From a virus (Duplodnaviria; Heunggongvirae; Uroviricota; Caudoviricetes): a stretch of 64,000 nucleotides of DNA. The position numbers and the translations under genes were made by a program. Positions 32,960 to 32,987 of the stretch are shown in pieces. The notes below the pieces were generated by a model that worked only from the letters and a program-made list of their open reading frames with translations, had not been told where the DNA came from and did no database searches. Location: IMG/VR virus record IMGVR_UViG_2565956719_000002; one strand, given 5' to 3'. Position 1 is the stretch's first letter. Each line of letters opens with the position of its first letter.

Positions 32960-32987
32960 ATTACACTAATAAATTTATTAGAGCAAT
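32960..32987. promoter_or_regulatory. bipartite palindromic C1 operator: ATTACACTAATAAATTT (plus) overlapping perfect ATTGCTCTAATAAATTT (minus)
   Basis: 17/17 consensus copy at 32971-32987 (minus) overlapping a 15/17 copy at 32960-32976 (plus). Confidence 0.6.

Follow-up and report, generated by a model that had tools for sequence, protein, structure and literature searches.

Positions 32960-32987 of the window (the whole 64,000-nucleotide stretch of viral DNA analyzed here) read ATTACACTAATAAATTTATTAGAGCAAT and contain two 17-bp sites, in opposite orientation and overlapping by 6 bp, into which the 3' end of dmt runs. Judged by sequence and position, this segment is Obanab (formerly Op72ab), the predicted bivalent operator over the promoter of ban at the 3' end of dmt. 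The initial annotation had drawn attention to the pair as a perfect palindrome containing one 17/17 copy; the overlap in opposite orientation and the full-length match stand, whereas the palindrome is imperfect (two mismatches in Obanb, the two 17-nt arms being 88% complementary). The target of the pair is the ban operon, which had not been named. In the P1 annotation the -35 hexamer of the promoter P1ban, TTGCTC, sits inside Obana; Obanb covers the spacer and reaches into the first bases of the -10 hexamer, the rest of which lies beyond its outer end. Because a generic consensus scan for sigma-70 promoters and terminators finds no promoter at 32800-33100 or at 2700-3000, where the hexamers are weak matches (the annotated P1 promoters in the former interval match the consensus poorly), promoter overlap rests on the P1 annotation, which puts promoters over the orthologous sites, and on the alignment to it.

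About 170 nt downstream of Obanab lies a strong terminator-like hairpin (32797-32778, minus strand; 8 bp, then a run of seven T). The hairpin (32778-32800) falls within the 'dicF-like region' of the P1 annotation, and an Rfam search of 32300-33000 (E of at most 1) returned sub-threshold tmRNA-like noise and no DicF. A short C1-controlled transcript may end at this hairpin.

Relation of the window to phage P1

Megablast places the window in the genus Punavirus (P1, P7, RCS47, and relatives). In local blastn against the complete P1 genome (AF234172) it is collinear with P1, in reverse orientation and at 92-99% identity, over roughly 37.1-94.4 kb of P1 coordinates, apart from the segments that are replaced or inserted (Table 1). 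The first 25 kb are covered to at least 80% by 74 plasmid records in PLSDB, of which the top-ranked are plasmids of about 95 kb, mostly from Escherichia coli; P1-like phage-plasmids occur commonly in E. coli, Salmonella, and Klebsiella. The window carries a c1 repressor gene whose product is nearly identical to that of P1 (Table 1); lxc, the gene for the co-repressor, is located beyond the window. At 38595-40845 the P1 repA/incA region is swapped for a different Rep3-type initiator (38735-39676, weak Pfam matches to Rep3_N and Rep3_C), followed by a protein with a T5orf172 domain (39969-40778); the plasmid replicon therefore differs from that of P1.

Table 1. Features of the window, in order of position
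Feature	Position	Strand	Three or fewer mismatches to ATTGCTCTAATAAATTT	P1 coordinates (AF234172)	Remarks
coi	25-234
Oc1c (Op99c)	62-78	+		94349-94365	Inside coi; 15.2 bits
Oc1a (Op99a)	234-250	+	yes	94177-94193	Half of bivalent Oc1ab, over promoter Pc1
Oc1b	245-261	-			Weak partner of Oc1a; ACGAAAATAATAGATTT, identical to P1 Oc1b
c1 repressor gene	345-1196	+			283 aa; 281/283 identical to P1 C1.100
Second ImmI-like module	1229-2807	-			Delimited from Rfam, Pfam, sequence, and target pairing
ORF6N+KilAC antirepressor (ant)	2344-1229	-			371 aa; Pfam
icd-like ORF	2562-2341	-			73 aa; stop overlaps start of ant
C4-family RNA	2617-2704	-			Rfam C4, 75.9 bits
isrK-like leader	2730-2807	-			Rfam, 60.8 bits
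Operator-like site	2882-2898	-	yes		CTTGCTCTAATAAATTG; absent from P1; 3 nt after pacB stop codon
Olpa (Op94)	6189-6205	-	yes	89904-89920	Upstream of lpa-pacA-pacB
OpmgT (Op88)	16970-16986	-	yes		Upstream of pmgT; context mapped to P1
OpmgRb (Op86b)	19063-19079	+	yes	82201-82217	Inverted partner, 32 bp from OpmgRa
OpmgRa (Op86a)	19112-19128	-	yes	82152-82168
Oppp (Op83)	21829-21845	+		79435-79451	20.2 bits
O26 (Op82)	22736-22752	+	yes	78528-78544	Divergent region between gene 26 and pmgL
Obanb (Op72b)	32960-32976	+	yes	68678-68694	Inverted partner, 15/17
Obana (Op72a)	32971-32987	-	yes	68667-68683	17/17, no mismatches
Odmt (Op68)	36247-36263	-	yes	65145-65161	Upstream of uhr-hrdC-dmt
Truncated Orlf (Op55)	49439-49449	-			Only the 11-nt 5' half, ATTGCTCTAAT, left; below 7 bits
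OrepL (Op53)	51198-51214	-	yes	49810-49826	Upstream of kilA-repL
Oc4 (Op51)	52869-52885	-	yes	48140-48156	Upstream of c4-icd-ant (primary ImmI module)
Segments replaced or inserted relative to P1	1196-2902, 8578-9571, 9917-16097, 30356-31445, 38595-40845, 48745-49439, 53121-54174

Frequency and identity of the operator sites

P1 has 22 dispersed C1 operators with the asymmetric consensus ATTGCTCTAATAAATTT (PMC8546580). Over both strands of the whole window, 12 sites match this consensus with three or fewer mismatches, where 0.25 are expected (the mean of 100 dinucleotide-preserving shuffles, whose maximum was 2; none reached 12). We also built a log-odds weight matrix from the 19 operators annotated in AF234172 and scanned the window with it, obtaining 14 matches of at least 14 bits, against an expectation of 0.72 from 100 first-order Markov sequences and of 0.63 by exact convolution; at 20 bits or more there are 12 matches, where 0.012 are expected per window. 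Thirteen of the sites are identical to training operators, so that for these the matrix scan is circular and provides no independent discovery; it is not circular for the site at 2882. Matches of 7-13 bits, for example at 28615 (13.1 bits) and 17095 (11.6 bits), are no commoner in the window than under the null model, and we did not count them as sites, because the null model predicts as many. We give no credence to, and rejected, the reading that an A/T-rich word simply recurs by chance: the best shuffle yields 2 matches where 12 are seen, and the excess at 20 bits or more is larger still (12 against 0.012). The frequency of the motif lies above both the shuffled and the first-order Markov backgrounds.

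Because AF234172 carries features labeled 'protein_bind, phage repressor C1', we extracted these and mapped the 97-nt contexts of the window sites onto P1. The contexts fall on annotated operator coordinates at 96-100% identity, with the exceptions of 2882 (absent from P1) and Orlf (half kept); 14 intact sites of the window coincide with P1 C1 operators in sequence and position. The P1 operators formerly called Op2a/b, 21, 51, 53, 55, 68, 72ab, 82, 83, 86ab, 88, 94, and 99a-e are renamed Oref to Oc1e in that record. At these 14 sites P1 and the window have in common the 17-bp sequences, their positions, and the neighboring genes. Their repressors are 99% identical, and both have overlapping bivalent operators at ban and c1 and an inverted pair at pmgR. 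The window departs from P1 in the extra site at 2882 before a second ImmI-like module that P1 is without, in the truncation of Orlf/Op55, in an Ea22-type cluster downstream of OpmgT, and in an SPFH gene that stands in place of tciABC downstream of Obanab.

The initial annotation listed 13 dispersed sites. Twelve of the coordinates are right or nearly so (36246 and 51197 are one base off), and Oc1c, Oppp, and the weak Oc1b had been omitted. The thirteenth, a weak site placed at 49434, is no whole site but a remnant of Orlf, 11 nt at 49439-49449 scoring below 7 bits; the rlfA/B replacement has its breakpoint within the operator, which leaves only ATTGCTCTAAT. In this replacement (48745-49449) P1 rlfA/rlfB/pmgF is swapped for a short segment with a hok/sok-type antitoxin RNA (Rfam sok match of 114.9 bits at 48970-49144, minus strand). 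The operon assignments of the initial annotation were mostly right, as for c1, both ImmI modules, lpa-pac, kilA-repL, and uhr-hrdC-dmt; the operator at 234, which had been put upstream of coi, sits between coi and c1 instead. An 'ASCH operon' had also been proposed, and among 40 ORFs downstream of operators no ASCH domain was matched in Pfam or NCBIfam; the RefSeq annotation of RCS47 places an ASCH protein at some point of the homologous segment.

The inverted pair at 19063-19128 had been said to flank a hairpin, and it does: an 11-bp stem (19076-19086/19093-19103) followed by a T-run on the minus strand, with a fold z of -6.65, lies exactly between Op86a and Op86b. This hairpin (19076-19103, minus strand) contains G+C and lies downstream of the annotated -10 of PpmgR, and its context in P1 is identical. 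It looks like either the terminator of the ppp-pmgQ operon or an attenuator acting on pmgR.

A single C1 repressor regulon

The motif copies are almost certainly operators for the C1 repressor of a P1-type phage-plasmid. The basis for this assignment is the identity with P1 in sequence and position, the excess over background, the presence of the cognate repressor gene, and the absence of the motif from phage D6. The proposal of the initial annotation that a single repressor regulon is involved is borne out by the base-for-base coincidence with the AF234172 operators (except 2882) and by the near-identical c1 gene at 345-1196. The C1 operator set is itself already known: it is textbook P1 biology, and the sites are annotated in AF234172. 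C1 binding and its stoichiometry come from published P1 work or are what we infer, and the same applies to repression at 2882 and of the cargo genes.

In the resulting model, C1 would bind each asymmetric 17-bp site, and two C1 molecules would bind each of the overlapping inverted pairs at 32960-32987 and 234-261. Since the sites are predicted to overlap or abut sigma-70 promoters, bound C1 would occlude these promoters, and early and lytic operons dispersed over the element would be kept off in the plasmid prophage. The operons predicted to be held in this way are c1/coi (by autoregulation), c4-icd-ant, kilA-repL, uhr-hrdC-dmt, ban, lpa-pac, and pmg/ppp, and what is silenced would include the genes of lytic replication (repL and ban), that of the late activator (lpa), and the operons for the methylase and the antirepressors. 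Lxc would stabilize the complexes of C1 with its operators, and inactivation of C1 by Coi or by the Ant antirepressors would lift repression (the roles of Coi, Lxc, and Ant1/2 are summarized in PMC8546580). The predicted regulon is that of P1 plus one member, the site at 2882-2898 before a second, putatively orthogonal C4-RNA/Icd/Ant module.

The repressor sites of the mycobacteriophage L5 repressor gp71 are called 'stoperators'. As in P1, one repressor there recognizes an asymmetric site that is present in many copies dispersed over the genome, with no clustered operator region. The L5 protein and motif are unrelated to those of P1, and stoperators act inside transcription units in an orientation-dependent manner, whereas P1 operators mostly overlap promoters.

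Could the motif instead be a promoter element, with TTGCTC as a -35-like hexamer together with an A/T-rich tract, that the operons share and that is read by RNA polymerase or a phage activator rather than bound by a repressor? TTGCTC is the -35 hexamer at P1ban, PpmgR, and P2pmgT in the P1 annotation, as such an element would predict; however, the sites occur in both orientations with respect to the downstream genes and at variable positions with respect to the annotated promoters, one of them lies inside the coi coding sequence and another downstream of repL, and published P1 work, including the footprinting behind the AF234172 annotation, assigns the sites to C1. A comparison with phage D6 (MF356679) bears on the same question. 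D6 has many P1 genes and keeps homologous operons with a different C1 (its homologue is 21% identical over 242 amino acids), and its 91 kb hold no matrix match of at least 14 bits. The motif is thus missing from D6 despite the common genes, which, given the divergence of C1, indicates that it follows the repressor and not the gene content. On the grounds of the two orientations, the absence from D6, and the P1 footprinting literature we rejected a promoter element as the explanation, which we regard as highly improbable, and retain C1 operators as the reading of the motif. The operator motif of D6 itself is presumably a different one. D6 also has two icd/antirepressor modules, orf18-19 and orf82-83.

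A second ImmI-like module headed by an operator-like site

The sole addition to the known P1 set is the extra site at 2882. The second antirepressor module, an insertion of 1.7 kb, lies where pacB and c1 converge on a short gap, and it is headed by this site, which occupies ahead of it the position that Op51/Oc4 occupies ahead of the primary ImmI module. The stretch 1229-2898 has the ImmI-type architecture, that is, a C4-family RNA, its targets, and overlapping icd and ant ORFs. The site scores 22.8 bits, a strength at which 0.0013 matches are expected per window, and it is outside the training set. It aligns with Oc4 of the primary ImmI module, both in the window and in P1, in a region of 65% mean column identity where P51a-like (TTGTGT-17-TACATT) and P51b-like (TTGCGC-17-TATGCT) hexamers hold their positions; the second module has the P51a-type arrangement, with the predicted operator beside the first of these hexamer pairs. 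The two modules appear to have separate RNA specificities. In the second, the C4-like RNA is exactly complementary to the a1 target TTGGCCT, which lies in the leader, and it pairs with the a2 target TTGGTCT farther downstream and with the b target GTCTAAGG over the icd-like Shine-Dalgarno sequence through G.U wobbles (paired by hand); the targets of the first module, TTGACAG and GATTGTGA, differ from TTGGCCT and GTCTAAGG of the second.

The core of the 2882 site plus eight flanking bases is found exactly in 52 IMG/VR contigs, always beside the 3' end of pacB; the second module is present in at least 52 viral contigs. The same insertion place is used in RCS47, pTZ20_1P, vB_EcoM-673R5, and JL22, where the module is 90-97% identical and has the operator-like core TTGCTCTAATAAATTG; the C4-like allele of RCS47 is different from that of the window. 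Insertion of an ant gene between pacB and c1 in pTZ20_1P and RCS47 has been noted previously (PMC6906374), and the operator, the C4-like RNA, and the promoters of the second module are undescribed in that paper and in the annotations of the relatives. One contig, IMGVR_UViG_2698536372_000019, has two exact copies of the second-module operator and flank 1566 bp apart, which points to a module duplicated in tandem or to a third unit of the ImmI-like kind.

The primary ImmI module has a peculiarity of its own. At 52560-52770 (minus strand) the b target of its C4 RNA is GATTGTGA, not GTTAGTGA as in P1. This target appears to be of P7-type immunity specificity, and the element would therefore combine a P1-type C1 with a non-P1 ImmI allele. 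Nearby, divergent transcription from next to Oc4 covers the sim superimmunity genes in P1; the window has in their place, at 52955-54167 (plus strand), a 158-aa ORF with no family match and a 224-aa ORF with a sub-threshold match to PTP-like phytase (26.5 bits, against a cut-off of 27 bits).

Cargo genes downstream of the operators

Two transcription units with predicted C1 operators contain genes foreign to P1. After pmgT come 6.2 kb of small lambdoid-type genes in a common orientation, including two Ead/Ea22 genes, DUF551, DUF4752, and many without a family. In the ban leader (30375-31419, minus strand), an SPFH/Band-7 gene (30375-31202, 275 aa) and a 78-aa ORF replace tciA-tciB-tciC. C1 control of these accessory cassettes is plausible, as a reasonable inference from their position in the pmgT and ban transcription units.

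The reading that we favor, with some reserve, is that 2882-2898 would be a working C1 operator, that this widespread P1 lineage would have two C1-repressed antirepressor circuits, each with its own antisense RNA, and that the cargo would be expressed only when C1 is lifted. A different account accepts the sites inherited from P1 as real, takes the 2882 site as a passive relic of a duplicated ImmI module, and puts the accessory cassettes (the Ea22/DUF551/DUF4752 cluster and the SPFH gene) outside C1 control, with promoters of their own or insulated by terminators. Position 1 of the 2882 site varies (C in 13 copies, T in 40), as might be expected of a relic, but the 16-nt core is exact in 52 contigs while the adjacent C4-like segment varies among them. 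The P1 ImmI module also has a constitutive promoter, P51b, and the P51b-like hexamer pair of the second module could serve likewise; the terminator-like hairpin downstream of Obanab could insulate the SPFH gene. Against independent expression of the cassettes, the cargo genes of the pmgT and ban units lie close together and share one orientation, promoter-like sites are rarer in the two stretches than in shuffled sequence (4 against 12.0 and 1 against 6.6), and 9536-16791 has no convincing minus-strand terminator. We consider the account with a passive relic and independent cassettes unlikely.

If instead the 2882 site is a working operator and the cargo is under C1 control, the C1 regulon would have grown by the gain of a complete operator-carrying module, immunity specificity would be set by two independent C4 alleles, and the cargo of both units (pmgT and ban) would stay off for as long as C1 represses them. 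In about half of P1-like elements, superinfection immunity and induction may be influenced by the second antirepressor/antisense-RNA module. More generally, the operator map marks acquired genes in P1-like phage-plasmids that lie inside repressor-controlled lytic operons and that, because of this location, would be silent in the carrier state.

The cluster after pmgT (9536-16063, minus strand) is a 6.2-kb insertion at P1 coordinate 85182 and consists of about 15 small co-oriented genes typical of the early-left regions of lambdoid/Stx prophages, 95-96% identical to segments of Stx2c-converting phages.
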